From a virus, in the UHGV virus genome UHGV-0279745: DNA of 64,000 nt, one strand, 5' to 3'. Below, in pieces: positions 1,743 through 45,235 of the stretch. A program made the translations under genes and the position numbers. How positions within the stretch are numbered: the stretch's first letter is position 1; each line of letters starts with the position of its first letter. A model generated the notes under the pieces. It was not told the DNA's origin, did no database searches, and saw only the letters and a list, made by a program, of their open reading frames with translations.

Positions 1743-2142
1743 TTATATCCGTAAGTATCCAGCCAGTATTCCTGTACTGGCTTCACTTACGCTTTCAGGT
1801 ACTGACGTTAACGTCTTAACTGTGGAACAATTTCACGAGATAATAAAAACCGCATATAACTCCATTACCGCAACGTCAGTACGTAAACGTTGCGATTACC
1901 CAGACGGTGATTTCGGTACAGAGATGTTTACCGATTACGCGGTTGCGTTTCTGTTAGGCCGACACTGTCTCGATAAACTTAACACTGCTGTAGAAGGGGA
2001 AACAGTGACGGAAATAGTCAATGCTTGGCAGCAACGTATTCTGAATGACCCTTACTGTCGCCAAGCGTTAAAACGTATGTCCACAACGGCGATTACAAAC
2101 GACCAGCGTGCTTTAGAGTTCTTTAAGCACAACTACAGCTAA
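1714..2142 (+). CDS. hypothetical protein (142 aa), paralogue of 3008-3439
   Basis: Overlaps upstream gene end; shared YIR..P...LA and NDP...L..MS.T motifs with the 3008 gene. Confidence 0.7.
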   Translation: MKTLNSDLRDYIRKYPASIPVLASLTLSGTDVNVLTVEQFHEIIKTAYNSITATSVRKRCDYPDGDFGTEMFTDYAVAFLLGRHCLDKLNTAVEGETVTEIVNAWQQRILNDPYCRQALKRMSTTAITNDQRALEFFKHNYS

Positions 2143-2163
2143 TTTACCAAAAGGAAAAATGAC

Positions 2164-2931
2164 ATGTTTAATATCGAAATTACCCCGCTCGTTAAAACTG
2201 AAATCCGTCCGGTTCCCGAAGCACAATTACTCGATCAACTTTATCGCATATTCCTGGATAAAGGTGTACATTTCCGTGTAGAACAAGTCAATGATGAAAG
2301 CATCGTGTTCTACTGGACTCACAGCAACGATTATCTTTGTGACACTATTGCGAAAGAAATCGGTGAGTTACTCAACCCAGCAGAAGGTACCACGAACGCC
2401 TGGGTAGAAACGACCGAGACTGAACAACCGAAAGCCGAGGCCGAAAAACAGCAGAAAGACGAACCGCACGTCCTCTGGTACGAAGGTAAGAAGATTAAGG
2501 AAATTAAAGAAGCGTTAGAGACCCTCTATCACGACGATTTAGGCATTTACTGGGATAACAGCAAGCTCGTCGTTCGATTGAAGAAAGACGATCGTAACCT
2601 CATGGAAGATATTCGTTCTATCGTTAAGCTGATCGATAACGACGCTGTTCGACTTATTTCGATTCATGGTATCGGAAAAGATACCGCTGATGAACTCATG
2701 CGTGTGGCTGTTCACGAACATAAGGAGAAAATTCATCAATCCGTTTACAAAGGTGAAACGCTCACCGTTTTGATCGACAACGATGTTGAGGTTTTCAAAT
2801 CATTAACGAACTTTATGCGAATAGTTTCAACGGATTCTTATATCGAAAAAGCACGTGCCATGGTTCTCGAAAAGATTTTTGATATTTACAACAAAGATTG
2901 CGATTGTCCTAATTGTCAAAAACGTCGATAA
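2164..2931 (+). CDS. hypothetical protein (255 aa), C-terminal CDCPNC Cys cluster
   Basis: ORF with AAGGAAAAA RBS; terminator hairpin downstream. Confidence 0.7.
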   Translation: MFNIEITPLVKTEIRPVPEAQLLDQLYRIFLDKGVHFRVEQVNDESIVFYWTHSNDYLCDTIAKEIGELLNPAEGTTNAWVETTETEQPKAEAEKQQKDEPHVLWYEGKKIKEIKEALETLYHDDLGIYWDNSKLVVRLKKDDRNLMEDIRSIVKLIDNDAVRLISIHGIGKDTADELMRVAVHEHKEKIHQSVYKGETLTVLIDNDVEVFKSLTNFMRIVSTDSYIEKARAMVLEKIFDIYNKDCDCPNCQKRR

Positions 2932-2956
2932 TTAACGACGTTCTAAATTCATCTAA

Positions 2957-2989
2957 GGGGTGGTAATCCGCCCCTCTATTATTGTATTT
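2957..2989 (+). terminator. rho-independent terminator-like hairpin with T-rich tail
   Basis: ggggtgg-taat-ccgcccc followed by tctattattgtattt. Confidence 0.5.
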
Positions 2990-3007
2990 ACCTAAAGGAG
3001 TATTAAA

Positions 3008-3439
3008 ATGTTTTTCGTACTAAAAGATGAAATCCGTAACTACATTCGTAACAACCCGATTGCTCTGGGCGTTTTAGCAGGTTTCTGTCGTCCAAATACT
3101 GATTTCGATTTAGTTAAGTTAGAAGAATATCAGGAAATTGTGAATACTAACTACTTGCACATCTGTAGCTGGGGTAAACGCCCTCGCGAAGAGTACCCTG
3201 TAGGTGAGTTAGGTGACACTATGCACCGTGACCAGAATCTGATGCACGAATTCGTTGAATACACACTGGAAAATCTTAACTATCCGCTTCTGGTCGACAC
3301 TGTACCAGAAATGGTTGACGAGTGGTTAAGTCGTGTTTACAATGATCCTACTGCCAGCACCCTGCTGAGCCAGATGTCGCAAACTTCTCGCGATATCGAC
3401 ACCCGCACGCTGATGTACTTAGCACACAACGTTCGTTAA
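3008..3439 (+). CDS. hypothetical protein (143 aa), paralogue of 1714-2142
   Basis: Conserved leader cctaaaggagtattaaaATG; paralogue motifs. Confidence 0.7.
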   Translation: MFFVLKDEIRNYIRNNPIALGVLAGFCRPNTDFDLVKLEEYQEIVNTNYLHICSWGKRPREEYPVGELGDTMHRDQNLMHEFVEYTLENLNYPLLVDTVPEMVDEWLSRVYNDPTASTLLSQMSQTSRDIDTRTLMYLAHNVR

Positions 3440-3446
3440 TCTCACT

Positions 3447-3500
3447 CCGCTATAGGCTTCGGTCTATAGCGGAATTAATTTTCTTTCCCTTTTCTTTTTT
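3447..3500 (+). terminator. rho-independent terminator
   Basis: ccgctatag-loop-ctatagcgg followed by long T-rich tract. Confidence 0.6.
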
Positions 3501-3605
3501 GTTATTTTGACACTACTTTACTTACCCTCTACTCGACTATTCCTATGCTGGCTGAGGGATGTAAAACGACCTCTTAAACCTTTTTACTTATTGTGAGTTA
3601 ACGCG

Positions 3606-4454
3606 ATGTCTCTTACGTCAAAACAGAAACTGCTAAAACTCATCAACACTGAAAACAATATTGTTCCGCCATTGACCTTCAGTGATGTTGATATCGGCGA
3701 ACCTACTGGTACTAGGGTTGATACCCAGGTGGTTCTGACTTCTAAACTCAAAGGCGATGAGTCTACTACTTTAACAGTGACTTACCATCGTCGTAATTTG
3801 CCCGAATACCTAACAGGTGAATTGGTATTCGGTAACGACGGTGTTGTAACCGCTACAGATTTGCTTAATGCAATCAACGCAAAATACGATTTAAATATCC
3901 TGCCGTCGGATATCGTTGATGCGAAAGTTGAAGGTGAAACCCATCAGCTTACCGCTAACGAGAAATCCTACGAATGGTGTGGCGAGGTGACACTTACGCT
4001 ACGCGATCCTATTGATCTGGCTAAACTGTTACCTGTTACTCAATTAGAAAACCTGGTAGAGTATCCGTCCACTAAGAAAGGTAACGCAGCGGTTTATTCT
4101 TATCCAATTGACTTCACCGCAGAAAAAGATTACCTCGATCCGATTACCATTAACGACACTGTCGACCTGGCTGAGTTAGCCACTAAACTGGTCAACGTCG
4201 TTGATGAGAAATGGGTAAGCGTACCTAAAAACGCTGCTAATAACCTCTACGGTGCTAAGGTTATCTACGATGGCCCTACCGCAGGTTACGAAGGTGCAAA
4301 TACGAAGTACACGCGTGTGCTGGTACTCGCACTCAGTGGACTGTGTGCTAACCTGACCGGTAATCTGTTAATCCACTTTAACGGTACCGATCGTCCGAAG
4401 TCGAAGATTGAATTAGCTAAAACTAATTCGGTCTTACCGGGATTCTTAGATTAA
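3606..4454 (+). CDS. hypothetical protein (282 aa), distant member of the NTK(V/I)T paralogue family
   Basis: ORF; N-terminal pattern similar to the 4468, 7608 and 8215 genes. Confidence 0.65.
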   Translation: MSLTSKQKLLKLINTENNIVPPLTFSDVDIGEPTGTRVDTQVVLTSKLKGDESTTLTVTYHRRNLPEYLTGELVFGNDGVVTATDLLNAINAKYDLNILPSDIVDAKVEGETHQLTANEKSYEWCGEVTLTLRDPIDLAKLLPVTQLENLVEYPSTKKGNAAVYSYPIDFTAEKDYLDPITINDTVDLAELATKLVNVVDEKWVSVPKNAANNLYGAKVIYDGPTAGYEGANTKYTRVLVLALSGLCANLTGNLLIHFNGTDRPKSKIELAKTNSVLPGFLD

Positions 4455-4467
4455 GAGGATTACAGTA

Positions 4468-4944
4468 ATGACCAGTCAAGAAACTATCTTCGACCTTATT
4501 AAAAAGGCTAACCCAGACGCTGAGCTTGACACCGCCAAAGTTACATTGGGTGAGCCCGTCGTAAGTACCGGTGCGTACAACACCGAAGTTACGGTTGCGT
4601 CAATTAAGAATCTCGGTTATGCTAATAAGCAAACGTTCCAGTATAACCGCATCGATGCAGGTTTGTATTTCCTCAACGTATTGCCGAAACTGTTAGTTGA
4701 ATCAGCCACCACGACTGCGGACCTGTTGCCTGTAATTAACGAACAATATGGCTTAACCCTTACTGAAGACGACGTATGGGTAGAGCAGGTTGGTGAGTTA
4801 CCGCTGGACGGCAGCGCAATCGAGCACGGCATTTTCTTCCGTCCTGAGTGCCTAACCTGGGTCGGTGGTTTTACAGTGCGCGTTGCGCGTAAACCGACTG
4901 TTGAAACACCGCCAGCTAATCCATCGCGCGCTAAGAAGAAATAA
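4468..4944 (+). CDS. hypothetical protein (158 aa), paralogue family member
   Basis: AAGAGGA RBS; terminator downstream. Confidence 0.7.
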   Translation: MTSQETIFDLIKKANPDAELDTAKVTLGEPVVSTGAYNTEVTVASIKNLGYANKQTFQYNRIDAGLYFLNVLPKLLVESATTTADLLPVINEQYGLTLTEDDVWVEQVGELPLDGSAIEHGIFFRPECLTWVGGFTVRVARKPTVETPPANPSRAKKK

Positions 4945-4948
4945 CGAC

Positions 4949-4982
4949 AGGGTGGGGTAATCCCACCCTCTTTTCTTTTTTT
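4949..4982 (+). terminator. rho-independent terminator
   Basis: agggtgggg-taat-cccaccct followed by T-run. Confidence 0.65.
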
Positions 4983-5005
4983 GTGTAAAAGAGGAGTTAA
5001 ACAAA

Positions 5006-5596
5006 ATGGCCGAACGTTGGACTAAAGAAGGTATTATTGCTTCGAAAACAGATTTAGAAGGAGGGTACGTAAACGACCCTGACGATAAAGGTGGGGAAAC
5101 CTGTCACGGTGTAACACTAACAACTGCACGCGAATACGGGTATAAAGGGAGAATGAAGGATCTGACCCGTGCGCAGGCGTTTGATATTTACGATCGCGGT
5201 TGGTGGAAGAAACTTAAACTCGATGAGATTTTAGCTATCTCACCCTTACTCGCAGACCGGATGTTTGATTTTGCTATTAACTCTGGCCGCGTTAACTGTG
5301 TGAAATCGTTACAACGTATTCTGAACGTTTTAAATAACGAAGGGAAACTTTACGCAGATATTGACACTGATGGCGGTATGGGACCTAAAACGCTAGGTGC
5401 CCTGAATGCTTATCTGAATTACCGTAAAGACGAGGGGTTAGGCATCTTAATCTTTGCCTTAATCTCACACCAGGTAACTTACTACACAGAAATCTCCGAA
5501 AAGCGTAAGAAGAATGAAAAATTCGCTTACGGTTGGTATGCGCGTGTGTTCAGGGAAATGCCGGATTATGTGGCGAAGGCGGGGTTAGTAAAATGA
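5006..5596 (+). CDS. GH108-like N-acetylmuramidase with peptidoglycan-binding-like C-terminal region
   Basis: EGGYVNDPDDKGGETCHGVT motif typical of glycoside hydrolase family 108; RBS AAGAGGAG. Confidence 0.65.
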   Translation: MAERWTKEGIIASKTDLEGGYVNDPDDKGGETCHGVTLTTAREYGYKGRMKDLTRAQAFDIYDRGWWKKLKLDEILAISPLLADRMFDFAINSGRVNCVKSLQRILNVLNNEGKLYADIDTDGGMGPKTLGALNAYLNYRKDEGLGILIFALISHQVTYYTEISEKRKKNEKFAYGWYARVFREMPDYVAKAGLVK

Positions 5597-5697
5597 ACTG
5601 GTTTGCTAAACTCTTAGCACTATTGTGGAAAGCGTTAACGTCTGGACGGAAACGTAAAGACGAAAAGCGTGGGTACGAATTTTTCTGGTTTCTATAA
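5593..5697 (+). CDS. small cationic amphipathic peptide (34 aa), unannotated in ORF track
   Basis: ATGA start/stop overlap with muramidase gene; MNWFAKLLALLWKALTSGRKRKDEKRGYEFFWFL. Confidence 0.3.
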   Translation: MNWFAKLLALLWKALTSGRKRKDEKRGYEFFWFL

Positions 5698-5712
5698 GGG
5701 AAGGTGTGGGTA

Positions 5713-6378
5713 ATGGAGAAGCTTCAATATAAACGTTTAGACAATAAGTGGTTTGTATTAACGGAGGATTACCATTATCCGTTTACGTTACGTGAAATTT
5801 ATCACGACCACGTACACTTAGACCGTGCGGTTTATTTAACGGGTGTATTGCCTGACACACAACTGTGGTTAACGGCACCGAAAGGGTTCGTTACCGATTT
5901 AGCGTCGATTCCTGAACACCTCCAGGGAATTTTCCATCCTGACGGGCCGTGGGCACCTGCGGCCTGCATTCACGACCTACTCTATCAAAAATGCAGTACG
6001 GAACGTAGCTATCCCATGACACCGGGTGGTAACGTTTCGCGTATTATCGACAAAGAGTTTTCTGACTTAACGTTCCTGCGTATTATGCAGTCGTTAGAAA
6101 TCTCGCCTTATATCTGCCAAACATTTTATAAGGCCGTCGTTGAATTCGGCTGGGATTCCTACGTAGATCCTAATGCAAAGCCATCCTACAACACTAACGC
6201 GTTTCGTACGTTAGATTATAATCGAAACTATTTATTCGTTCGCGAGTTTAAGGAACCTGCAATCCCTGACCACGAACGTATTGATATCACCACAGATCAG
6301 CCCGTTAATGTCAAATACCTGAACATCAAACGTGCTTTTCTGTCTGGGAGGGAAGATGTTTCATCCAAATCCGAGTAA
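5713..6378 (+). CDS. hypothetical protein (221 aa)
   Basis: ATG at 5713 with GGAAGGTG RBS; conserved-looking TDLASIP and AACIHDLLY motifs. Confidence 0.65.
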   Translation: MEKLQYKRLDNKWFVLTEDYHYPFTLREIYHDHVHLDRAVYLTGVLPDTQLWLTAPKGFVTDLASIPEHLQGIFHPDGPWAPAACIHDLLYQKCSTERSYPMTPGGNVSRIIDKEFSDLTFLRIMQSLEISPYICQTFYKAVVEFGWDSYVDPNAKPSYNTNAFRTLDYNRNYLFVREFKEPAIPDHERIDITTDQPVNVKYLNIKRAFLSGREDVSSKSE

Positions 6379-6871
6379 CTTTAAACTCAAAGAGTTAGTA
6401 CCACAGTCTTATATTGCCAAATACGGCGATTCTGCAATTCGGTTTATGAATCCGTTGTTAATGATTTCGCTACAACAGATTCGTAACCGTTTCGGTAGAA
6501 TGGTGATTAACTCGCCTGCTGCGCAACAGCGTGGCCTAAGAACCTTAGACTTTTTCATCAACCAAGAAAAGCCTAAAGGCGGTAACTATAAACAACGTGC
6601 TTTACAACTCTACTCTGATTCGGGGAGTCAGCACAAGTTCGGTAATGCGATTGATGCAACGTTGTTGGACAGTACCGTAAAGCAGGTTCACGACTACATC
6701 GCCGCTAACCCTGATGAGTTTCCGTTCATTCACTTTATTGAATGCGACATCAGTTGGTTACACATCGACGTTCGTAACCAACCTAACATTACTTTCTGGT
6801 CACCAAATCGAGGTACTGTGAAAGTGGTTAAGCAAAAACCAATCGACTGGAGCTCCTTAGTCGAGATTTAA
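6356..6871 (+). CDS. peptidase M15-like (VanY / L-alanyl-D-glutamate peptidase-type) cell-wall hydrolase
   Basis: SQHKFGNAIDA (SxHxxGxAxD) and WLHIDVR motifs; GGGAGGGAAG RBS before internal ATG. Confidence 0.6.
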   Translation: MFHPNPSNFKLKELVPQSYIAKYGDSAIRFMNPLLMISLQQIRNRFGRMVINSPAAQQRGLRTLDFFINQEKPKGGNYKQRALQLYSDSGSQHKFGNAIDATLLDSTVKQVHDYIAANPDEFPFIHFIECDISWLHIDVRNQPNITFWSPNRGTVKVVKQKPIDWSSLVEI

Positions 6872-7607: not shown

Positions 7608-8144
7608 ATGGCTAAAGCTTTCAATCTGCAGCTCATTGAAGCTGTTAAAGCTAAAAACCCAGACACTGCGTCTAAACTGACCGTAGAAGACGTTGATTTT
7701 GGCGCTGTTGCTGCGTTCAGCGGCAAATCTGGACGTAATACTAAAATTACGCTGACTGCAAAAGAAAAAAGTGCTAACTTTACCGGCAGCAAAGAATTCC
7801 ATTATATCCGTCTGGCATCCCAAGACCTGATCGGTGCTAAAGCTTACCAGCAGGAAGGTAGCCTCGAACTGGAAAACGCTGCCATTGTAGCCAAACTGAA
7901 CGAAGAGATGGTTACTAAAGGTTATGTAGATGACGCGTTTGCAGAAGGCGAACTCACCATCGAAAAATCTGATGGCGAAAGCGGTGCTAAAGTTTACACC
8001 GTTAAAGTAAACGATGCGCACATCAAATTCTTAGCCGGTACCATTGCCACCTTCACCTATACCAACCCGGTTCCTCCGAAGGTAGCTCTGAGCGGCCTGG
8101 AAGGTGAACTGGATAGCTTCACCGCTCCGGGTATCGGGGGCTAA
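7608..8144 (+). CDS. hypothetical abundant protein (178 aa), paralogue of 8215-8745
   Basis: Strong RBS; biased codon usage; own terminator; NTKITLTA and GELDSFT motifs shared with 8215 gene. Confidence 0.75.
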   Translation: MAKAFNLQLIEAVKAKNPDTASKLTVEDVDFGAVAAFSGKSGRNTKITLTAKEKSANFTGSKEFHYIRLASQDLIGAKAYQQEGSLELENAAIVAKLNEEMVTKGYVDDAFAEGELTIEKSDGESGAKVYTVKVNDAHIKFLAGTIATFTYTNPVPPKVALSGLEGELDSFTAPGIGG

Positions 8145-8153
8145 GTAAGTTAA

Positions 8154-8188
8154 ATCGGGGAGGGGGTAACCTCCCCGATATTTCTTTA
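8154..8188 (+). terminator. rho-independent terminator
   Basis: atcggggagg-loop-cctccccgat followed by T-rich tail. Confidence 0.6.
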
Positions 8189-8214
8189 ACTCGTACTATT
8201 AAGGATTTAAGATA

Positions 8215-8745
8215 ATGGCAGCTACTAACCAGATGATGTTGGTCGCGCTTTATAATGCTGCTAACACTGAGCTACCACATCAGATTACTGATAAAGAAGT
8301 GTCCTTTGGTCTCCCTACTGCGCTGGAAGGCGAAGGTAAGAATACCAAAGTTACCATGACTGCACTGCCGGGTTCTGAGAATTTCAAAGGCGCAATCGAA
8401 CTGAAATACGATCGTCTGGAGCCGGGTGTTGTAGGTCGTATTGAGCTAACTGACGATCTGTCTCGCTGGGTTCAAGAAAATGAACTGCGCGCTTGGTTAC
8501 AATATTACATCAACAAAGTAAAACCTGACGACGCTATCGCACCAGCTGACGTTGTGTACAACACCGAAGACCAGAAAGACGAACATGAAAACGTCACTCT
8601 GCGTACCGTGACGTGCACCGTTACTGAAAGAAACCTCCGTTATAAACCAGGTGTAATGGCAACTTTCGTAATTACGCCGAAAGTTGTTGATAATCGTATT
8701 GACCTGGCCACCACCAACGGCGAGCTGGACGGTTTTACGTCCTAA
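8215..8745 (+). CDS. hypothetical abundant protein (176 aa), paralogue of 7608-8144
   Basis: AAGGA RBS; NTKVTMTA and GELDGFT motifs. Confidence 0.75.
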   Translation: MAATNQMMLVALYNAANTELPHQITDKEVSFGLPTALEGEGKNTKVTMTALPGSENFKGAIELKYDRLEPGVVGRIELTDDLSRWVQENELRAWLQYYINKVKPDDAIAPADVVYNTEDQKDEHENVTLRTVTCTVTERNLRYKPGVMATFVITPKVVDNRIDLATTNGELDGFTS

Positions 8746-8759
8746 GAAAAAATAAAAAT

Positions 8760-8800
8760 ACCTACCTCCTATTACGGGAGGTAGGTATACTATTTTTTTT
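8760..8800. terminator. bidirectional terminator (A-rich upstream, T-run downstream)
   Basis: acctacctcc-loop-ggaggtaggt flanked by aaaaataaaaat and tattttttttc; separates convergent genes. Confidence 0.7.
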
Positions 8801-8809
8801 CGCTGTCGA

Positions 8810-9481
8810 TTACAGCCCTTGCTCTAACGCAAACGCTTTTATCGAATCGTAATCACGTGCTTCAGCCCAAGCCCTGACTTCTCTTTTCTGCTCAGACATT
8901 GCGTGGTGTAGTTTTTGATCGCGCTCAACGATTGCTGCCAGCAACGTCTTGCACTGTTCTAACGTAAACGGTTCGATACGGGTGTTGTTAGCCGTTAACC
9001 AATACGCTGGCGCAGTTTCTGACTGGATATAACGACTCAGTGCTACCTGTGACTTCTCATCTGCCTGGAAAGTGAAATCACCTACCTGAATCTCAGCATA
9101 GCGTGCATCCTGATAACGGAATTCCAAAGCGCTTAGAATTTTCTGAACATCGGTAAAGATGTACCGCACCGTGGAACGTAAACCTGTACGAATTTCTTCC
9201 AGGTCAATCCCCAACGTGTCGTTAACAAAGTCTTTCGCTTTCTGTAGCGTAAACCGTGCTTCGATTTCAGACATGTCGTAGTTACGCATTTGTTCCAATG
9301 CTTCGCGATCAGACATCCCATCAATCAACTTATAGTGCAGTAACGCACAAAACCCTGTACGGCCGTGATCTTCGCTACCGATTTTCTCCATGTAGTTACC
9401 ATGACGATCAATCGGTAAATCGTGCGCAAAATAACGGCGACGGATTTCTTCTTTCGTTAAGCCTTCACCAGTAGCAGACAT
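8810..9481 (-). CDS. hypothetical protein (223 aa), last gene of rSAM/Cys-peptide operon
   Basis: AAGGAGA RBS; 25-nt overlap with upstream gene. Confidence 0.7.
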   Translation of the reverse strand: MSATGEGLTKEEIRRRYFAHDLPIDRHGNYMEKIGSEDHGRTGFCALLHYKLIDGMSDREALEQMRNYDMSEIEARFTLQKAKDFVNDTLGIDLEEIRTGLRSTVRYIFTDVQKILSALEFRYQDARYAEIQVGDFTFQADEKSQVALSRYIQSETAPAYWLTANNTRIEPFTLEQCKTLLAAIVERDQKLHHAMSEQKREVRAWAEARDYDSIKAFALEQGL

Positions 9482-10029
9482 TCATCGTCTCCTTTAATCA
9501 ACCCTAATTCGATTAACAGTTCAAAATCGATATGACGGAATCTTGTGTCGAAGTCCGATTCCCAATCGATACGGATACCCTGGCATTCTTCTGGCGTTAG
9601 CTCAGGAAAAATCACGCTATTAAATTTCTCCCGCTCATCGTAAAACCCATCAATCGGTGAGTTCGGGTTACGTGTTGCGAAGATAGTAATGCCGGGGAAG
9701 GACAATGCCAACACAGTGATAGATTCTGCGCTGGGTTCGCTTAAAGAGCGGCGTAGAAACGCAATTTTGTGACGTGGGAAATCCAATACCCGTTCTTCAA
9801 ACCCTGGGTTACGTTTTTCAATTTCCGCGACCGACAGGTCAGTAAGTTCGGTGCAGTACATTGGGATGATTACAGTCACACCGTGACGAATCAGCAAGCG
9901 TTTTACGTCATCGGTGAAATCTTCACCGTTAATCACCACATAACAACCAAATAGCTTACTGTTTTCCAGAAACTTATCCAGAAGTCGAATTCTACGCTTC
10001 GTAATATTGTTGATCAGAATTGGTTTCAT
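9457..10029 (-). CDS. hypothetical protein (190 aa) in rSAM/Cys-peptide operon
   Basis: ORF overlapping both neighbours (translational coupling). Confidence 0.65.
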   Translation of the reverse strand: MKPILINNITKRRIRLLDKFLENSKLFGCYVVINGEDFTDDVKRLLIRHGVTVIIPMYCTELTDLSVAEIEKRNPGFEERVLDFPRHKIAFLRRSLSEPSAESITVLALSFPGITIFATRNPNSPIDGFYDEREKFNSVIFPELTPEECQGIRIDWESDFDTRFRHIDFELLIELGLIKGDDECLLLVKA

Positions 10030-11314
10030 CTTTGGCTTCTCTTAATAATTTTTCCTTTTGGGCACGTTCACGAACACAGCGTGGGCAATAACACATGCTC
10101 GTGTCGTGGAACGCTTTTGCTGACGTCGTACCCATCTTCTGTTTCCAGTATTCCGCCACCATCAGTTTCGCTGTCGTCCAGCCACACTGACGTCGTTCAG
10201 CGTGATACGCTTTACGGTCTTCTAACGTTCCTTCCCCGTTCTCGTAAGAAGCCGCCGCGCAGCTACCACAAGCGTGTTTCATCGGACAACCTAAACAGGT
10301 CTCTGGGTAGTTGGTATATTGCGTTTGAATCTCTTCTAACAATTTACCGTTGTCCAGACTGACGAATTCCCGACCTACCAACTCAAACACCGCAGAACGC
10401 GACGTTACCGTTGACATAAAGCGGTTACAGCCAAAGATCTTACGGTCAAATCCTAAGCACGTCATGTGCGTTAACGTCCCACAGAACGGACGTAAGCGTT
10501 CTGGGTTCAGCCGTACGGTGTCATTATACAGTAACTGGTCACGCCAGTTCGGTTCCCAAATCGTATCGAAATCCAACCCTTCTGGAATGATGTGCGATAA
10601 GATATTACGTGGGTTGGTGTGTAATCCTTTCTCAACCCAGTAATCTATCACATCCATCATCTGTAAAGCGATTGACGTCGCCATGCTACGTGGCATAACG
10701 TCTTCGAAAGTTACGTTTCCAGAAATTGTCCCACCGCCAGTAATGTCAATTAATGACTTCATCCCCGCAGCATAGAACGGCAGCGTTTCTAACGTAAAGG
10801 TTGCTTTTACGCCGAGCTCTGCAATGCCAACCTCTTTTAAGTAGTTATAGCCACGTACTGCGGCTTCGTAAGAACCCTGGCGTGTTGTTGTGAATATACG
10901 ATAACGGTCATGGGATTCAGGTAAGCCGTCAATCGAAACCCCAACCGAAAGTTTGTCTTTCCAACGTTCTACAATCTCACGGTTCAACGGACGATCTAAC
11001 AGCGTTCCGTTCGTGGAGATACTAAACATAAACGGTCGGTTGTGTTCTTTACACAACTGCTCAGCGGTTTCAAACGCAGCCAGCAGCAGTTTAGGTTGCA
11101 TGAACGGTTCACCACCGATAATGTCAATAATAACTTCAACATTCGGTTCGTTTTTATCACGTTCAAAACAGGCGTGTAAGAAATCAACAATATCTGCCGC
11201 TTTGTTGTTACGCGGGTACTTACGTTCGTAACAATACTCGCAGTCCAGGTTACACGAAAGGTTGGTTACGATCTGATACGTTAACTGCTTAGGGAATTCA
11301 TTTACTTGACTCAT
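9992..11314 (-). CDS. radical SAM enzyme with C-terminal SPASM/twitch-like Cys cluster (440 aa)
   Basis: CNLDCEYC (CxxxCxxC) near N-terminus, GGEP motif, C-terminal CLGCPMKHACGSC plus further Cys pairs; GAGGGG RBS. Confidence 0.8.
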   Translation of the reverse strand: MSQVNEFPKQLTYQIVTNLSCNLDCEYCYERKYPRNNKAADIVDFLHACFERDKNEPNVEVIIDIIGGEPFMQPKLLLAAFETAEQLCKEHNRPFMFSISTNGTLLDRPLNREIVERWKDKLSVGVSIDGLPESHDRYRIFTTTRQGSYEAAVRGYNYLKEVGIAELGVKATFTLETLPFYAAGMKSLIDITGGGTISGNVTFEDVMPRSMATSIALQMMDVIDYWVEKGLHTNPRNILSHIIPEGLDFDTIWEPNWRDQLLYNDTVRLNPERLRPFCGTLTHMTCLGFDRKIFGCNRFMSTVTSRSAVFELVGREFVSLDNGKLLEEIQTQYTNYPETCLGCPMKHACGSCAAASYENGEGTLEDRKAYHAERRQCGWTTAKLMVAEYWKQKMGTTSAKAFHDTSMCYCPRCVRERAQKEKLLREAKDETNSDQQYYEA

Positions 11315-12221
11315 TTGCCGCCCCTCTATTACGCCCTGCCATCACCACACGACGAATATATTCGTACGCCTCTACACCGATAGAGAAGGCCAGTTGGTTA
11401 CATCCCGATTCCAGAACGTTAGGTGCATTCTGGAGTTGGTGCTCACCACCGTCTGCATTAATCCAAAGACTTTCGCTGCAAACGTTACACCCTTCTTCAA
11501 ACACTTTACTTACTGTAAAGCCGCATTCACGACTATTTACTACATTCAGTCGTTCAATGTTATCCTGAACCTGATAGTAGCCGTAAATAAAGTTCATGAC
11601 GTGGTCGGGCGATAAAGGTTTTGGCATTTTCGCATCTAAGAGTAACGTCATTGCACGGAAACCGTAATGGTAAATCGCGCTGTGCAGCTGAATAATATCT
11701 TCGTGCCAGCGTTTGTCCCCTAAACGGTCCCGTGTCAGGACACCCCAAGTCTGGACATTATCCAGCTCGTAGATCGTTTCCAGTGCTTCGTAACAGCCTT
11801 CGTCAATAAAGCGCATAAACGGGCGCTCAGACGACTTAAACCCATCGATGCTAACGTAGACATTGTCAAACTGTTTTAGCAACGGGAGATGCGATTTACG
11901 CATCTTTAAGCCATTGGTATACAACTGGTGTTTGAGTTCTGGACGAATCACTTTTAATTCGTCAACAAACGCCTCAATTTTACGGGTTGCCAGTAATGGC
12001 TCACCACCCGTCCACTGAATTTCGGTAATGGTTGGATTAGCTTCCAACGCTTCCAAAATTCGTTCACGTTGAAACTCTCGCGGAGAATCTTCACGATTCA
12101 TGTAATAGGCTCCACCGCAGAAGCTACAATCCAGGTTGCACTTGGACGTAGCGACTACGGACAATACGGTGGGTTTATCGTATAAACGATTCGATAACCT
12201 TGGTTCTGCATTGGTTGTCAT
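11298..12221 (-). CDS. radical SAM enzyme (307 aa)
   Basis: CNLDCSFC (CxxxCxxC), GGEPLL motif, additional C-terminal Cys residues; overlaps downstream gene. Confidence 0.8.
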   Translation of the reverse strand: MTTNAEPRLSNRLYDKPTVLSVVATSKCNLDCSFCGGAYYMNREDSPREFQRERILEALEANPTITEIQWTGGEPLLATRKIEAFVDELKVIRPELKHQLYTNGLKMRKSHLPLLKQFDNVYVSIDGFKSSERPFMRFIDEGCYEALETIYELDNVQTWGVLTRDRLGDKRWHEDIIQLHSAIYHYGFRAMTLLLDAKMPKPLSPDHVMNFIYGYYQVQDNIERLNVVNSRECGFTVSKVFEEGCNVCSESLWINADGGEHQLQNAPNVLESGCNQLAFSIGVEAYEYIRRVVMAGRNRGAANESSK

Positions 12222-12242: not shown

Positions 12243-13130
12243 TTAAATATAATCAATGGCGAACAAAGGATCGTCGTCTACGTTAGCACCAGGGGTTAAC
12301 AAGAATGGAGAGTTATACGCTTCCAAAATACGGTTAAGGTCTTTATAACGGACATTTAAACGTTCTAAATCCGCTAACGTTACGTTACGGTCCAACACCG
12401 CCGACACTGCTGCTTTCTCTTCGTCAGTTAACGTGACTTTCGTCATTAAGAAACTAACGAGTTTTGCCAGATCCGCTTCTGTTGACGGATGCTCGCCAAT
12501 ACGCGTTTGAATCAAATGCTGCATCCAAGGCTTACGGATGCGTTTTGTGATTTCGTGTTCATCCGTCAGGGCAACCCACACGGAACGTTCACGATCCCAC
12601 ACGAACTTATAGCTATACGCCATTAAATCCGCTAAGCAATTAATCCCTAACGCTTCGTACCCTTCAATTTCGATATACGATTCCGTATCGAAATAGTTCT
12701 TCGTTTCTGGTGTTACCAGGGTAAAGAAATACGGGAACGAACCTAAGTAATCCGGCGACCACCAACGACGGGCAACCGGTTTTGCGCCCATTTCTTCAAA
12801 TGGGGTAAAGAACAATTCCATATCTACGGAGTTATTCAAAATCCCGTCACTAAAGAAATATTTACCCGCAACCAGTTTACCACGCAACTCGGAGTCACCG
12901 GTAAAGACCACTACACTTTCTGCCGTCAGATCACGAATCTTAAACGTATTTTCTACACGATAGTTTTTACGATCGGTGAAGAAACGTCCGCGCACTTTAG
13001 GCCATTCGCCCGGCAACTGAGTCAACAGACGAACTTCATCTGCTAAGTGTGCACGTACGGAATCAGGGGAAGAAATGTGAAGTGGATGATTGAAAATTGT
13101 TTTGTACGCTAAATGTAAATCATTCTTCAT
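12243..13130 (-). CDS. hypothetical protein (295 aa) in rSAM/Cys-peptide operon
   Basis: ATG at 13130 preceded by GGAG RBS. Confidence 0.65.
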   Translation of the reverse strand: MKNDLHLAYKTIFNHPLHISSPDSVRAHLADEVRLLTQLPGEWPKVRGRFFTDRKNYRVENTFKIRDLTAESVVVFTGDSELRGKLVAGKYFFSDGILNNSVDMELFFTPFEEMGAKPVARRWWSPDYLGSFPYFFTLVTPETKNYFDTESYIEIEGYEALGINCLADLMAYSYKFVWDRERSVWVALTDEHEITKRIRKPWMQHLIQTRIGEHPSTEADLAKLVSFLMTKVTLTDEEKAAVSAVLDRNVTLADLERLNVRYKDLNRILEAYNSPFLLTPGANVDDDPLFAIDYI

Positions 13131-13279
13131 TGATTGCTCCAATTATTTCACGGTCAAACGGACATTCAGGGTATAGAAACCACCGCACCGTTGCCTACCG
13201 ATAACTTGAAACTCAGTAGTAAACCCGTACAATTAACTCAGTTATTGCGTAATAGACATACTACCACTGGAGGGCTTAG

Positions 13280-13486
13280 TTACCTTCCCCCCGCACCTTT
13301 ACTACAGCTACCACTGCACGACCAGCTACATCCGCCGTTACAGTTATAATGGCTTAAAGGTAAACCGGCAAGGTTATTGGTTGAAGACACAGTGCCCTGG
13401 TTTGCAATATAGTTGTTTGCGTTAGCGGTCGTAATATACCCTTCCGCTGTTACTAACCGATCACGAAGGTTCTTAAGGCTAATCAC
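13280..13486 (-). CDS. Cys-rich precursor-like peptide P3 (short, ~68 aa)
   Basis: GTG start after GGGAGG RBS that overlaps P2 stop; leader ISLKNLRDRL, junction HYNCNGGCSWSCSGSCS. Confidence 0.5.
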   Translation of the reverse strand: MISLKNLRDRLVTAEGYITTANANNYIANQGTVSSTNNLAGLPLSHYNCNGGCSWSCSGSCSKGAGGR

Positions 13487-13488
13487 AA

Positions 13489-13740
13489 TTACCTCCCAGA
13501 ACACCCACCAGAACAACTACCTGAGCAGCCTGCAGAACAGTTTCCTACACACGAGTTAGAACAACTCCCCGTACAGCTTCCTGAACAGCCACCAGAACAG
13601 GTATTCGAACATCCACTACAGCCTGCACTACAACCTGATACACAGTTTGCAGAACAGGAAGAACCACAGCCGCCTGATGCGTTCCCTGTACAACCACCAG
13701 AACAGCTCGAACAGGTCCAGCTACAGCTCCCACCACAGTC
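13489..13740 (-). repeat. low-complexity Cys-codon repeat region (P2 core)
   Basis: Reiterated CSGx / CxGx codon units visible in sequence. Confidence 0.6.
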
Positions 13741-13887
13741 ATAGTGGTTGCGAGCTTGCCCACCGAATAAGTCTGCGTTGTTCGTCGCTTTCCCACGAAT
13801 ATAGTTTTGTACTGCACCCGTATTCTTCAATGCAGTGTTGTCAATGTTATTTAGCCGCGCTTGTAGCGCAGGTAATCCAATTGCCAT
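13489..13887 (-). CDS. Cys/Ser/Gly-rich precursor-like peptide P2 (132 aa)
   Basis: AAGAGGTG RBS overlapping P1 stop; ~50-aa leader then ~80-aa core with Cys at about every fourth residue (about 20 Cys). Confidence 0.7.
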   Translation of the reverse strand: MAIGLPALQARLNNIDNTALKNTGAVQNYIRGKATNNADLFGGQARNHYDCGGSCSWTCSSCSGGCTGNASGGCGSSCSANCVSGCSAGCSGCSNTCSGGCSGSCTGSCSNSCVGNCSAGCSGSCSGGCSGR

Positions 13888-13897
13888 TTTTCACCTC

Positions 13898-14150
13898 TTA
13901 GGTTGGGCCAGAACAGCCACCAGAGCAAGCACCAGAACAACCCGTAGAACAACGGCCCGAGCAAGCACCCCCACAGGTCCCACTGCAACCTGAGCAGCCA
14001 CCGGAACACGTTGAACTACATCCAGTACACTGGTTACCGCACGCAGAGGAGCAGCTACCTACACACACTGACGTACAGGTGCCCGAACAACTCGTACAGC
14101 CATGCGTACAACCGTTTGAGCACGTCCAGCTGCAACTCCCCCCGCAGTCT
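13898..14150 (-). repeat. low-complexity Cys-codon repeat region (P1 core)
   Basis: Reiterated CSGx units. Confidence 0.6.
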
Positions 14151-14296
14151 AACCGACTTGGCGTCCAACCCGAAAAAGTGTCGGCGGCATTATGTGCTTT
14201 CGACGCAACTTGCGGATCAACACGTGGGCCAGTTGCCATTTGGTTCTCTACGTTGGTGATTCGGTCACGTACATTTTTAACACTGATCGCCATCAC
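13898..14296 (-). CDS. Cys/Ser/Gly-rich precursor-like peptide P1 (132 aa)
   Basis: AAGGA RBS; leader MAISVKNVRDRI, junction RLDCGGSCSWTCS, CxxxC-repeat core. Confidence 0.7.
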   Translation of the reverse strand: MMAISVKNVRDRITNVENQMATGPRVDPQVASKAHNAADTFSGWTPSRLDCGGSCSWTCSNGCTHGCTSCSGTCTSVCVGSCSSACGNQCTGCSSTCSGGCSGCSGTCGGACSGRCSTGCSGACSGGCSGPT

Positions 14297-14360: not shown

Positions 14361-15560
14361 TTATTTCGTACCCGCTTCTGCCTGAACGTCATCACGGGAC
14401 GTCAAGTTAGCGTTAACGTGTACTGAAGCCTGAACCACACCACCGTATTTCTTGTGGAGATAGCCTGTGTGTGGGTTATCTGCCGCAATATGGTTTTGCA
14501 GGTTCTGATTCGCCTGACTGATCGCGTTCGTGTTATTCGCGACCTGTTGTTTAAGCGCATCCAAGTTTTGTTGCAGATTATCAATTTTCTGATCGGACTC
14601 ATTACCCCGCTGTTCTAACGCAGCAATGCGCTGAATCGCTTGATTGAGTTTGGTGCTCAGATCGTTGATATTTTTCTGTAACTGTAACACTAGCGAATTT
14701 AGGTTCGCCAATGCCAATGCCATTTTCTGGTAGTTTTGTGCAACGATGTTAAGTTGGTCGTTCCACGCTTCCAAAGATTTGACAACAGCATCAATACGTT
14801 TTCCTAACGCTTCATCCGCTTTCTTCAACGCATTAATATCAGTAATGGTTGCATCGATGGCAGACTGTACGTCACGGATAAGTGCACGGATCTCCGTTTC
14901 TGTTAACCCGTTAACCTGGTGAATATCCAGATGGTGGACGTTACCCGTGGCGTTAATGTGCGCGTTCAGCGCGTCCAGGAAATCGTTTTTCAGGCTTTCG
15001 AGAATCGCTTTGATGTTCTCAAGCTGTACAGCATCGCCCGCCGTTATCGCATCTTTAATGCCAGCGAGCACTGTAATGATATATTCGAAGCCGTAAATAT
15101 CGCCGACGTCTTTATACGTCGGTGCCGACGGAAATGTATCAGGAACATTTCGCAAGTCTTTAAAGCCAACAGTTCGATTATCGAGATTCAACTCAGCAAT
15201 CGCCTGTTCTATCGCAGTCACGTTTGCCGACTGCGGACCCCCGACTACTTGCGCCGATACCGTGATATCGGTCGGAATCGCGGTGTTCGTTACAACAACC
15301 GCCATTACCACTTCCCGGTTCTTCGTCAATTTCTCGTAAGCCGGGTGTGCAAAAATCAACTCATAGTCCGTTCCGCGCTCATACGTCGCATCGGGGCGGT
15401 TAGCAACCCGCAAGCGGAACGTATCAGCATAAAACGGACCGTCAGGAAAAGCAAACGCACGGTTAACTTTACCTGTGCCTAACGTAACCTGACGCTCCAC
15501 GGCGTTAGAGGTTAGGGTTCCCGTTAAATCTAAAGGGTATTGGTATACAATGGAGGCCAT
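14361..15560 (-). CDS. tail fibre protein (399 aa) with C-terminal coiled coil
   Basis: ATG with AAGGAGA RBS; N-terminal PDGPFY...GTDYEL domain shared with the three large fibres; heptad-rich C-terminus. Confidence 0.75.
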   Translation of the reverse strand: MASIVYQYPLDLTGTLTSNAVERQVTLGTGKVNRAFAFPDGPFYADTFRLRVANRPDATYERGTDYELIFAHPAYEKLTKNREVVMAVVVTNTAIPTDITVSAQVVGGPQSANVTAIEQAIAELNLDNRTVGFKDLRNVPDTFPSAPTYKDVGDIYGFEYIITVLAGIKDAITAGDAVQLENIKAILESLKNDFLDALNAHINATGNVHHLDIHQVNGLTETEIRALIRDVQSAIDATITDINALKKADEALGKRIDAVVKSLEAWNDQLNIVAQNYQKMALALANLNSLVLQLQKNINDLSTKLNQAIQRIAALEQRGNESDQKIDNLQQNLDALKQQVANNTNAISQANQNLQNHIAADNPHTGYLHKKYGGVVQASVHVNANLTSRDDVQAEAGTK

Positions 15561-15600
15561 GGCCACTCTCCTTAATCCGAGACGTCCTTGTCTCGTGGCG

Positions 15601-18600
15601 TTAAGATGTAAACATAAGATTGAACTGGAGCTTATCGATATCGCGGGTTTGTGCTGGGTTAACCGCATCGTACGTGGTTGCCACGTAGACCGTTAATGTC
15701 CCGTCAGCAAACGAAGTTTTCACCGGTGGCGTAGTCCCTGTCTGTCCATCAGTTACAATGACGACAGGTTGAGCCGGGAGTTGATGGAACTGACCCTTAA
15801 CCGCTTTATACACCAAACCAGATTGCGCTGATAACTCCGTGTCGGTATAGACGATAAACGGCGTGTCGATATCTGTCTGTTTAATGACAGTGTTCGTCTC
15901 AACGTCAATCAGCTGAACAGCACCGAACTTCGTACGGTAGCTATCGTATTCATTTTTTGGAATGACAAACGTAGCATGTACACGGACTTCTTCGGCGGGC
16001 TTAAATCCGGCGTGTTCTTTTTCCAGATAGCTGTTAGCAGTTAACGTTACTGTCTGTTCAGTCATCGTACCACCAGACTGGTTTAACCCGTAACGAACTT
16101 GGGTTATACCTGTCGGAGCCGCAAGCCTGATTTTTAGTCTACGGTTAGCGGTGCCGGGATTACCAGGCACTCTAACACGCAGGCTCAAAGCCAGATATGC
16201 ATTCGTACCGGTAGTCGGTTTCGTATACGCACCCAACCACTTCATATTCGCGGTTGCCGCTTGACTGTTCTCAGAAGCAGTAGCCGCTACAACGTTTGCA
16301 GCGACCGCTTTCTGCCAGAACTGGTCAGCGCAGTTCTCATACGCTACTCTACCGATACTTTTATAACCTGCATAGGTTTCCTGTATCGGCAGATTGGGGC
16401 GTGTTGTGATCCCGCTCAACGCATTCCATCTCTGACCATCGACATACCCCGCACCATTGCTCGCGGATGCCGTGGGGGCTTTCAGCGGTTGGTTAACCAA
16501 GGTTTGGAGTGGACCCGTTTTTCGATCGTACGCCGCTGCAACGTCGTGCTGATCTCTAACAGCAGCGTGTTCTTCTAATTCACGAACCCTGCCTAACCGT
16601 TTCACTTTATCGATGTTAATAGCAACTATGCGCTTTTTATCGGTTGTAACTGTACCAACAAATAATCGCGAAGTCGTATCCGGCAGCTTTTCCAGCCCGA
16701 TCCGATATTGAGCTTTCGAACCTACAAGAGCAGCATGAACATAGAACGTCTGGTTAGCATGGTTTTCTGGGAATTCGTTGCTTAAATCCACCGACCACGT
16801 CGGTAATGTATAGCTATTACTACCGAAATCTAACCTGACCTCTTCCGTCAAGTATAGAATCCAACCTTCCGCAGTCTCCACGCCTGCAATAATAACCGCC
16901 TGCCCCGCTGTTGAGAATGTGGTATCATTAACGAACTCTTCGACTGTATATGCGTTACCTGAACAGAAAACGCGGTCAGCTTTAGAGAAAATTCGTGCCA
17001 TCTTGTCCCAATTACCCGCACCCATGTAACAACCAGATTCTGGGTTGTGGGCAGGAGCCATCTGACGCAACTGTGACTTACCGGGAACGCGAGTCCAACC
17101 CGACCCAGGGTTAAAGGTATACTTCGCAGCGTAACCCAAAGCATTTAGGTCCCCGATATTCCGTATTGTCAGCGTATAAGGCAACCATAGACCGAAGTTT
17201 ACACCGTCGGCAGAAGCAAAAATTGGCTGGCCTACACGTCGCGTTTTATTGCCCGCTTCTTCCCTCAGAGACTGATAACTTAAGCCGTAATCAAGGTCTA
17301 AGAACCAATCAACGAGTTTGAAAGTAGCCGAGTTAAAACGTAGATAACCGTTTTCTTTGGTCGGACTTACCATGAAGTAATAGATGTCGAGAACTCGACG
17401 TCCGTTACTCAGGGTTTTCATACATGAGACTTGTAATAAGTCGAACTCACAAACAGTGTTAATGCCTAGCAACCAGAGCGCAAACAACGCGTTGCCGCTT
17501 TGGTGTGCTGCACTGATGCGTTCGTTCGCGTAACCGTTTGCTTGACCAGATGGTGCACCGTCGACAATCATCCTAATCATCTTCTGGCGATCCGCTTCCT
17601 CTAACGTCAGCCGTTCTGATGACAGGGCAAAGTTACCGTAGATGTTTCGATATGGGAAGGTTTCCGCTTTCGTCAAATACCAACCGTTTAATTGCCCGTG
17701 ACGCTCCTCAGGAGTCATGCAAGCAGCCATACAGCTTAACTGTTCGTAAAGGGTTGCATCAACTTCTCGACGGTTGTTGTTCGGACCATAACCACTATAT
17801 CCGGGAACGTCATAAGGTTTACTTGGGTCAACTTCTACTTCGATCGTATAGCGGTTGCGCGGATTGGATAGCCAAACCTTATTCGAACCACCAATACCGA
17901 CAGGATGAGAAAGACCGATTGTATAGATAGAACCGCGACCTTTATCCCATGTAAATGTTGCTTCGCCTGAGGTATTGTTTGGGTTATCATAACGCAGATA
18001 ATCAAAAAACTCTTTGCCTTGCGTACTTTTAATAGTAACGTTCGGCATCTGGTCCGCATCGTTAATCTGCCAGCAGGAAAGCATCATTCCCGAGACATTA
18101 GGTTTAGCATACGTCGCAAAACAACGATTGTTTGCTTGGCCGCCACCCCACTTACGACTGGTTTCTACAGTTGAGCCATCCGCGAACGTCAGTGTGGTAG
18201 TATCAACCTTAATGGGGAAACGTTCGGCACCCTCTAACGTAACTCTGCCCGTTAACGTATCGATTGTGAAACTTGTTGACCATTGACGGAAATTAATCGT
18301 CGAACCGTCGGCAGCCGCAAACCACACGGTGGGTACATGGTTCACACGAATCACGCTGTCGCGCACCGCACAAGCATGGCTACATTCTGGACCGTGAACA
18401 AAACTGTGACCGATTGTCCATTTAGCCCGTGCCTCTGGCGGGTAATACGTAAAGAACTGACCAGTCTGCGACTCTTCGGTCTTCTGACCAATTCGTAAAC
18501 AGAGGTTATCTCCGAATTGCCCCATTTCTCCGGTTAGGGTTACACGTTCAAATTCTAACTCAGTATTGTTAGTCAAATCGGCTTTACGTAAACGCCATGC

Positions 18601-44650: not shown

Positions 44651-44737
44651 TGGGTAAAACATATATCGCTATACTTGTCGAGCTATCAATCGGCGGTACA
44701 CGTTTTAATACTACACATCAACTCCGGGCGTTTCGTT

Positions 44738-45235
44738 ATGTTAACGGTACGTAAAGAATCTGAAATTGGTAACGATCTTTTTAATGCGCCCGAAGACTAT
44801 AAAGTCGTTACCATTAATTGCGTAGGAGCGATGGGTCGCGGTATTGCACTCGCGTGTCGTGAACGCTACCCCAACCTTTACCAGGATTATCGTAAGCGGT
44901 GTCGTGAAAACGAAATTAAGATTGGAAACGTTTACGTTTACTCTGACGAAAAGTGTATCTTGCTCCCCACGAAAACCCATTGGCGCTTAAAGTCCCAGGT
45001 TTCTTATGTTACTGCGGGCATTACCGCACTAGCGGATTGTGCTGAGGATCTGGATACCAGCGTTGCTATCCCTCCACTGGGAATGGCAAACGGGTGGTTA
45101 GATTCCTGGGAAAGACAAGAAATCTTTTTGTGGCTTTACAAAAAACTTGAATCAAGGAGACAACACTACACGTTATACTTACCTGATAAGTTGTACCAAG
45201 AAGCAGAGTCATTAATTCCAAACTCTTTTAAATAG
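44738..45235 (+). CDS. macro-domain-like protein (~165 aa); start uncertain
   Basis: VVTINCVGAMGRGIALA resembles the macro-domain VNAAN...GGGVA motif; AIPPLGMANGWL resembles the second macro motif. Confidence 0.55.
   Translation: MLTVRKESEIGNDLFNAPEDYKVVTINCVGAMGRGIALACRERYPNLYQDYRKRCRENEIKIGNVYVYSDEKCILLPTKTHWRLKSQVSYVTAGITALADCAEDLDTSVAIPPLGMANGWLDSWERQEIFLWLYKKLESRRQHYTLYLPDKLYQEAESLIPNSFK

Follow-up and report, generated by a model that had tools for sequence, protein, structure and literature searches.

Two adjacent genes on the minus strand of the virus genome UHGV-0279745, rSAM1 and rSAM2, encode radical S-adenosylmethionine (SAM) enzymes and form a cassette with the genes of three Cys-rich proteins (P1, P2 and P3) and of a 299-aa partner protein. 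The analysed stretch, hereafter the window, has a length of 64,000 nucleotides, and positions refer to it unless a locus of another phage is named. The window phage is a giant Salmonella-type phage, affiliated with the SPN3US group (Seoulvirus) of jumbo phages. Its cassette shows ~72% nucleotide identity to that of SPN3US, rSAM1 is 100% identical to its counterpart on a 225-kb IMG/VR contig (L006), and Erwinia jumbo phages also keep the cassette. The minus strand carries the whole late tail-fibre block, in which the genes are tightly packed (rSAM1 and rSAM2 overlap by 17 nt). The block consists of the following open reading frames (ORFs), with the evidence for each given in brackets:

15601-20784, minus strand: fibre/baseplate protein, 1727 aa (phrog_7449 over the full length; weak tail-fibre PHROG matches; homologue of SPN3US gp168)
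14361-15668, minus strand: coiled-coil virion protein, 435 aa (phrog_2163, 7e-104; homologue of SPN3US gp167)
13898-14296, minus strand: P1, Cys-rich protein, 132 aa (ORF; phrog_6085, 1.6e-40; Cys spacing)
13489-13887, minus strand: P2, Cys-rich protein, 132 aa (ORF; phrog_6085, 4.7e-38; TIGR04114; Cys spacing)
13280-13516, minus strand: P3, short Cys-repeat protein (ORF; phrog_6085, 2.5e-24; 68-aa counterpart in SPN3US; Cys spacing)
12243-13142, minus strand: partner protein, 299 aa (phrog_8030, 1.4e-141, labelled function unknown)
11298-12221, minus strand: rSAM2, small radical SAM enzyme, 307 aa (Pfam Radical_SAM)
9992-11314, minus strand: rSAM1, SPASM-like radical SAM enzyme, 440 aa (Pfam Radical_SAM, 3.4e-15)
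9457-10029, minus strand: 190-aa protein (phrog_7988; 38-nt overlap with the end of rSAM1)
8810-9481, minus strand: DUF4376 protein, 223 aa, last gene of the block (Pfam DUF4376, 8e-11; weak "tail protein" PHROG match)

The two radical SAM enzymes

A previous reading of the sequence alone had described two different radical SAM enzymes in tandem that share the cluster-binding context CNLDC-x-(Y/F)-C and a GGEP motif. Both ORFs are present and the motifs are located in each protein: CNLDCEYC at residues 21-28 and GGEP at residues 67-70 of rSAM1, CNLDCSFC at residues 28-35 and GGEP at residues 72-75 of rSAM2. Pfam Radical_SAM (PF04055, gathering score 29.5) is matched by rSAM1 with 57 bits (E 3e-15) and by rSAM2 with 53 bits (E 6e-14), and the AlphaFold2 (AF2) models of both proteins match radical SAM crystal structures, which together with the motifs places both in the superfamily. 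The two proteins share 25% identity in the core only (hhalign aligns just residues 5-213), therefore they are different enzymes, and a recent duplication is ruled out. Both are held by phrog_1802, for which PHROGs gives only the generic label "radical SAM domain-containing protein". Each of them starts at the radical SAM motif, at most 30 residues from the N-terminus, and neither has a PqqD-like domain, that is, a recognition element (RRE) of the systems for ribosomally made peptides that are modified after translation (RiPP).

rSAM1 carries the SPASM-like auxiliary domain that had been expected in one of the enzymes. A SPASM domain is recognized by 7-8 C-terminal Cys in the arrangement Cx9-15Gx4C ... 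CX2CX5CX3C ... C and by two auxiliary [4Fe-4S] clusters. Across 43 aligned homologues of rSAM1, eight auxiliary Cys of the C-terminus are conserved; C296, C340, C343, C349, C352 and C377 are invariant, and conservation reaches at least 90% for C278 and C286. The core of the domain, CLGCPMKHACGSC (residues 340-352), has the spacing CX2CX5CX2C, which is one residue shorter than the canonical CX2CX5CX3C. Since the spacing is non-canonical and Pfam SPASM (PF13186) gives no match to rSAM1 even at E≤1, we use the term "SPASM-like". The fold agrees with the assignment: the AF2 model of rSAM1 (pLDDT 89.9) superposes over ~400 columns with CteB (Foldseek E 3.7e-16), followed by ChlB and anSME, and CteB is also the best PDB sequence match of rSAM1 (5.8e-14). 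An additional CxCxxC at residues 408-413 is conserved in the jumbo-phage clade only. Many enzymes of this clade end with ...QFYEA; this ending and the CxCxxC (9992-10120, residues ~396-440) are absent from the prophage versions, and the jumbo-clade tail may hold a third metal site or serve for docking.

rSAM2 has a short, truncated C-terminus of a beta-hairpin and helices, similar to the twitch domain, which consists of a short C-terminal beta-hairpin plus helix and binds one auxiliary cluster via 3-4 Cys. Among its C-terminal Cys residues C248 and C274 are invariant and C245 is found in most sequences, while C233 is not conserved. The three conserved Cys would be compatible with an auxiliary cluster that leaves one site free for the thiol of a substrate. 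An extra copy of the small enzyme, located between the Cys-rich genes, was observed in two close relatives of the window phage with 93% identity in rSAM1 (L007, 4563-5483; L022, 4564-5484), which have three radical SAM genes in the block.

The Cys-repeat proteins and their relation to tail fibres

P1, P2 and P3 are all encoded within 3 kb of rSAM1 on the same strand. Their repeat unit is C-[S/T]-G-[G/S/T], and Asp and Glu are essentially absent from it in the jumbo clade. P1 consists of an N-terminal segment of ~50 aa and 21 Cys with a period of 4 or 3, with the junction ...LDCGGSCSWTC... between them; P2 has a similar segment of ~50 aa followed by 20 Cys with a period of 4 (some 3) and a single gap of 8. 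P3 has 4 Cys (CNGGCSWSCSGSC), and the GTG at 13486 is probably its real start, giving 68 aa as in SPN3US. In each of the three proteins the N-terminal segment of ~50 aa ends with ...NA(D)xhxGxxxxxY/L-x-C-x-x-x-C-S-W-(T/S)-C. All three proteins belong to one family, phrog_6085, labelled in PHROGs as function unknown, and P2 reaches 20.4 bits with the TIGR04114 Cys-rich repeat model (cut-off 20). A pattern of at least 7 Cys spaced by 1-4 residues occurs in two of the 504 ORFs of the window, and both belong to the cassette.

The 299-aa partner protein has a conserved helical region at the C-terminus with the motif G..(R)xADYxRLIxFLLSKVxLTxxE. It does not match any Pfam family, a search of PDB with a profile of 12 sequences resulted in a best E of 0.29, and its database homologues are all "hypothetical". 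It shows similarity to 250-aa proteins encoded beside the enzymes in two prophages (L002 and L003, E 3e-10 and 4e-10, respectively).

In SPN3US the corresponding gene products are gp168 (fibre), gp167 (435 aa), gp166, gp165 (partner), gp164 (rSAM2), gp163 (rSAM1), gp162 and gp161. Virion proteomics of SPN3US detected gp167-gp173 and none of gp161-gp166; gp167 was detected by mass spectrometry in virions, outside the head (Suppl. Table 1), and the 188-kDa gp168 is essential (PMC5694885). The fibre/baseplate candidates gp168-170 are absent from a tailless mutant (PMC5694885). The pattern, with gp163-gp165 undetected and gp167-173 detected, fits the view that the two enzymes and the partner are non-structural assembly factors. 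The SPN3US gp166 gene (ACQ60_gp100) was called in the wrong frame across a 134-aa Cys-rich ORF (NC_027402, 143191-144220 of the record; L001, 12167-13196), and all Cys-repeat ORFs of SPN3US, of 134, 130 and 68 aa, are without annotation. On the minus strand of NC_027402 these ORFs occupy 143413-143817, 143828-144220 and 143191-143397, respectively. The counterparts of P1-P3 were thus missing from the proteome searches because mis-annotated or unannotated ORFs are absent from the search database. An annotation error has thus come to light in SPN3US, the reference jumbo phage, and it explains the absence of the Cys-rich products from the virion proteomes of this phage.

In IMG/VR 469 rSAM1 relatives were recovered, among which 80 viral loci were compared. 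Using a filter for same-strand flanking ORFs with at least 7 Cys spaced by 1-4 residues, a Cys-repeat ORF adjoins the rSAM1 relative in 77 of the 80 viral loci and in three prophage loci. The loci fall into three groups by identity to rSAM1. Jumbo phages (59-100% identity) encode the enzyme pair together with the partner and with two or three small Cys proteins; in a middle group (31-37%) the repeat is fused to tail fibres; and a distant group (24-28%) has a lone SPASM enzyme without the partner. The small radical SAM enzyme was found in all 18 jumbo loci, in 10 of the 12 middle-group loci and in L002 and L003, the partner in all 18 jumbo loci, 11 of the 12 middle-group loci and the same two prophages (jackhmmer), and both are absent from all 50 loci of the TIGR04115 type.

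The "bacterial" homologues of rSAM1 are prophage genes inside tail modules. A P2-like prophage of Campylobacter has the gene order baseplate J, baseplate I, PF12571 tail fibre, 250-aa protein, SPASM enzyme, small radical SAM enzyme, DUF1353 protein and sheath, and the C-terminus of the fibre reads GCNGCSGSCSGSC..., given also as GCNGCSGSCSGSCSSGCTACSGCSGSC.... A Deferribacter prophage encodes, in this order, a lambda-J-type tail protein, a 302-aa fibre, a 250-aa protein, the small enzyme and the SPASM enzyme, and the fibre ends with CSDCSWTCSSSC..., given also as ...ADQLGGQAGSYYRCSDCSWTCSSSCTGSC.... The small radical SAM enzymes of the prophages are homologous to rSAM2 and the 250-aa proteins to the 299-aa partner. 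Among the viral loci, the Cys-repeat carriers of L025, L027, L034 and L035 match many "tail fiber protein" PHROGs, and the C-termini of the carriers in L024, L025, L027, L034 and L035 match phrog_6085, the family of P1-P3. In the window the cassette is contiguous with the homologues of gp167 and gp168. The cassette is thus part of a tail-fibre module. In one middle-group locus (L034, 7131-9188) a single ORF of 686 aa has two Radical_SAM stretches and fuses the small enzyme (residues ~12-156) to the SPASM enzyme (residues 288-665); its match to Pfam SPASM is weak (18.2 bits, below gathering). This Rosetta-stone fusion unites two enzyme types encoded separately in the window, and we counted it toward their joint action, together with the 17-nt gene overlap in the window and the distribution of the small enzyme over the loci.

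The C-S-W-T/S-C junction is accompanied by the small enzyme in 23 of the 23 loci that bear the motif, and the motif is found in none of the 52 loci without a small enzyme. As evidence for a division of labour between the two enzymes this association was set aside, because the sample is dominated by one clade and is confounded by phylogeny.

Three further observations concern the related loci. L032 and L033 encode the partner, the SPASM enzyme and the small enzyme, yet none of their flanking ORFs passes the Cys-repeat filter; the substrate may be located elsewhere or may be too short for the filter. In L078 a 722-aa protein that contains the SPASM radical SAM domain is preceded upstream by a run of six ORFs (1036-6697) with extended Cys repeats, in which the repeat covers up to 255 residues. 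In L066, L067, L070, L076 and L081 the TIGR04115-type SPASM gene is in three pieces (~7950-9230) with in-frame stops at the same places; since these stops coincide across viral contigs that are independent of each other, a reassigned stop codon in these phages is suggested rather than pseudogenes.

Proposed maturation of the fibre module and the alternatives

The closest described system is the TIGR04115/TIGR04114 pair, in which, as here, a SPASM radical SAM enzyme without an RRE is encoded beside a protein with long C-x-x-x repeats. The TIGR04115 model covers rSAM1 end to end (residues 10-371 to positions 3-345 of 359, E 6.5e-33), and rSAM1 is encoded near tandem C-x-x-x repeat proteins; it scores 114.7 bits against a cut-off of 350. 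Bona fide members occur on viral contigs beside Cys-repeat ORFs (455 bits in L047, 430 in L068 and 416 in L039), whereas the scores lie at 115-160 bits for rSAM1 and the enzymes of the middle group. Based on this score and on the 24-28% identity to true members, rSAM1 is assigned to a sister clade of TIGR04115. This clade differs in having the smaller radical SAM enzyme and a partner of 250-300 aa, and its repeat is more uniform (C-S/T-G-x) and often opened by the C-S-W-T/S-C junction. Since single-enzyme CXXX-repeat systems exist, the second enzyme and the partner are a clade-specific addition. The pairing of enzyme and repeat is known at the level of annotation because NCBIfam already names a "CXXX-repeat target" maturase family; the TIGR04115/TIGR04114 family was defined in silico, and no published chemistry was found for it in our literature search.

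Among characterized enzymes, the ranthipeptide thioether synthases PapB (freyrasin) and CteB (SCIFF/thermocellin) act as one enzyme each on small secreted peptides, whereas here two enzymes are found and the candidate substrate is a tail-fibre domain with at least 20 Cys. The PapB family (NF047865) aligns to residues 10-371 of rSAM1 with E 1.2e-33 and 116.8 bits, below the cut-off of 340, and the score for the CteB family is below its cut-off as well. In CX3D motifs, the residue that PapB joins to Cys is Asp or Glu (PMC9413430). The window repeats do not contain such acceptors; if cross-links are formed, the acceptor must differ from that of PapB since Asp and Glu are essentially absent, and Ser, Thr or Gly are purely conjectural candidates. 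QhpD is a SPASM enzyme that places thioether cross-links in a protein subunit which remains in a larger assembly. Its family model is matched by rSAM1 with 6e-17 and by relatives with up to 2e-30, far below the cut-off, and it differs by its substrate QhpC with Cys-Asp/Glu links, its single enzyme and its bacterial periplasmic enzyme context. The HxsABCD system, defined in silico, has the same design: a short-period repeat substrate, the SPASM enzyme HxsB, the smaller non-SPASM radical SAM enzyme HxsC and a fourth protein. HxsB is matched by rSAM1 (3.9e-21), and HxsC is among the best matches of the small enzymes (4.5e-10 for rSAM2; top match, 4.3e-13, in L002), with all scores well below cut-off. 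The Hxs repeat is H-x-S instead of C-x-x-x and the Hxs system is not known to be phage- or fibre-associated, therefore we regard the likeness as an analogy of design and not as membership.

The sequence-only reading had placed the two enzymes on one peptide family. A tail-fibre module is a better description of this family than a free RiPP-type product: the same repeat and junction end tail fibres in other phages, and the enzyme genes are always located in tail-fibre gene blocks. We consider it rather likely that rSAM1 and rSAM2 are a dedicated maturation pair for a Cys-repeat tail-fibre module. The proposal relies on the class of the enzymes, their conserved auxiliary Cys, the linkage to Cys-repeat proteins, the third component (the partner), the enzyme fusion and the absence of nucleotide-pathway partner genes (see below). 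The enzyme-substrate relation, the thioether chemistry, the role of the partner and the incorporation of P1-P3 in virions are what we infer from these data. In the infected cell the SPASM enzyme would bind the Cys-repeat and cleave SAM reductively to a 5'-deoxyadenosyl radical, which would take a hydrogen atom from a neighbouring residue; a C-S (thioether) bond would then be closed to the Cys thiol held at the auxiliary cluster, as in the mechanism of CteB, PapB and QhpD. Repeated along the array, such cross-linking would turn the Gly/Ser/Cys-rich segment into a covalently laddered rod or tip, resistant to proteases and shear. The small enzyme would act in the same pathway at a different position (e.g. 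the Trp-containing junction) or by a second chemistry, and the partner protein would probably present or chaperone the substrate, because neither enzyme has an RRE. More tentatively, and with somewhat greater doubt than confidence, we propose that fibres or their tips carry a ladder of radical-derived cross-links in (C-S/T-G-x)n, made by a two-enzyme radical SAM system with a new partner protein; it would be the first radical-SAM-dependent post-translational modification of a virion structural protein, conserved from jumbo myoviruses to P2- and lambda-like prophages.

Several points weigh against the proposed maturation. The Pfam SPASM model does not recognize rSAM1, the enzyme scores far below the family cut-offs of both TIGR04115 and PapB, and the window repeats lack the acceptors of PapB. 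Thioether formation is predicted here simply as the commonest outcome for this enzyme class. Two middle-group loci with fibre-borne repeats, L025 and L027, have no small enzyme, therefore the small enzyme is not strictly required. In the jumbo phages the substrates stand alone as small proteins whose N-terminus resembles a leader, as in RiPP precursors, and P1-P3 have not been detected in any virion, their SPN3US counterparts being outside the search database.

The usual roles of radical SAM enzymes in phages, i.e. QueE in 7-deazaguanine DNA modification, the NrdG activase or MoaA- and viperin-like nucleotide chemistry, would account for the weak matches of rSAM2 to QueE (35.5 bits), NrdG (34), MoaA (43.8) and viperin (39) and for marginal PHROG matches (QueE-like 1.6e-6, NrdG-like 1.7e-4). 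These matches are confined to the shared core, and the NCBIfam cut-offs are 260 for QueE and 131 for NrdG, so that neither enzyme belongs to these families. QueC, QueD, GTP cyclohydrolase I, TGT/DpdA, NrdD, NrdG and Gly_radical are not found in the rest of the window, where the 57 remaining ORFs with a length of 100 aa or more, scanned individually, match just 14 families of Pfam and 17 of NCBIfam; none of the Que, FolE, TGT/DpdA, NrdD and NrdG genes and no ribonucleotide reductase is named in the complete RefSeq annotation of SPN3US. The absence of QueC/QueD/FolE/NrdD partners that had been noted beside the genes thus extends to the window scan and to the complete SPN3US annotation. By family scores, structure ranking and missing partner genes the QueE, NrdG, MoaA and viperin roles are ruled out; a nucleotide role of the pair is extremely improbable and effectively excluded. 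That both enzymes are of the peptide- or protein-modifying kind and not QueE or NrdG was upheld. Comparative genomics ties the pair tightly to the adjacent Cys-rich family. Within this kind, the Cys repeats might be structural through disulfides or metal, as a Zn or Fe thiolate ladder of a trimeric fibre, with the enzyme pair performing epimerization, anSME-like Cys/Ser oxidation or the delivery of a metal cluster. Metal ions line the fibre axes in T4 fibres, anSME is among the best structural matches (the epimerase EpeE being lower in the lists), and the repeat is without the Asp/Glu acceptors used by PapB. However, the top sequence and structure matches are the thioether-forming CteB, PapB, SkfB and QhpD family, and the repeats do not contain C/S-x-P/A-x-R, the motif of anSME substrates, thus we regard a disulfide or metal role as rather unlikely.

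For the jumbo phages the main alternative is that P1-P3 are precursors with leader and core, from which a free sactipeptide- or ranthipeptide-like toxin, signal or metal binder is made and released at lysis. The small, stand-alone substrates with a ~50-aa N-terminal segment and a Cys-rich core would suit such a product, as would the RiPP-maturase class of both enzymes and the fact that P1-P3 were never detected in virions. The last point is explained for SPN3US by mis-annotation, and the locus differs from a canonical RiPP cluster: neither enzyme has an RRE and the block has no leader peptidase, exporter or immunity gene, its other genes being fibre or virion genes or genes of unknown function. 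Moreover, other phages carry the same repeat and junction covalently in tail-fibre proteins, and the putative leader shares with those fibres a junction of the fibre type, NAxxhGGxxxxxY, which they have upstream of the repeat. A free product is therefore unlikely.

No paper that links these enzymes to tail fibres or describes the variant with two enzymes and a partner was found in our literature search, and the overview papers on RiPP radical SAM enzymes that it covered do not mention phages or CXXX repeats. Phage genome papers list radical SAM genes as "auxiliary metabolic" or unexplained (e.g. PMC3322345, PMC6143709). With the proposed maturation of tail-fibre proteins, one large group of these genes gains a concrete and testable job, and the established amber-mutant genetics of SPN3US makes the hypothesis directly testable. 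If confirmed, it would define a new class of post-translational modification of virions and a new class of SPASM substrates, with at least 20 Cys in a structural protein rather than in a small peptide; moreover, the reason for which a further radical SAM enzyme and a partner are needed in some CXXX-repeat systems could be addressed in a two-enzyme system that occurs naturally. The production of infectious particles could then depend on the Fe-S and redox state of the host, and fibre tips with a covalent ladder could have consequences for host range and for the engineering of robust receptor-binding proteins of phages.

Other genes of the window

Downstream of the enzymes, the 190-aa phrog_7988 protein and the DUF4376 protein are both restricted to the jumbo clade (jackhmmer across the loci), and the former stands outside the conserved core. 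A DUF1353 protein is encoded near the fibre block (5704-6378, plus strand; Pfam 8e-15), and its SPN3US counterpart is annotated as "tail assembly chaperone"; in the Campylobacter prophage a DUF1353 protein follows directly after the radical SAM pair (L003, 8068-8433). The ORF at 3606-4454 and three other ORFs encode four paralogous DUF7941 proteins (best E 2.9e-53), which probably correspond to the virion "paralog family B" of SPN3US. A further protein of the window has a match (3.8e-36) to the antitoxin DarG, a DNA ADP-ribosyl glycohydrolase with a macro domain, and may serve counter-defence against DarT-type systems. The candidate ORF is probably 44675-45235 (plus strand), a position assigned from synteny, immediately upstream of the gene of the SLT transglycosylase (45309-46034).

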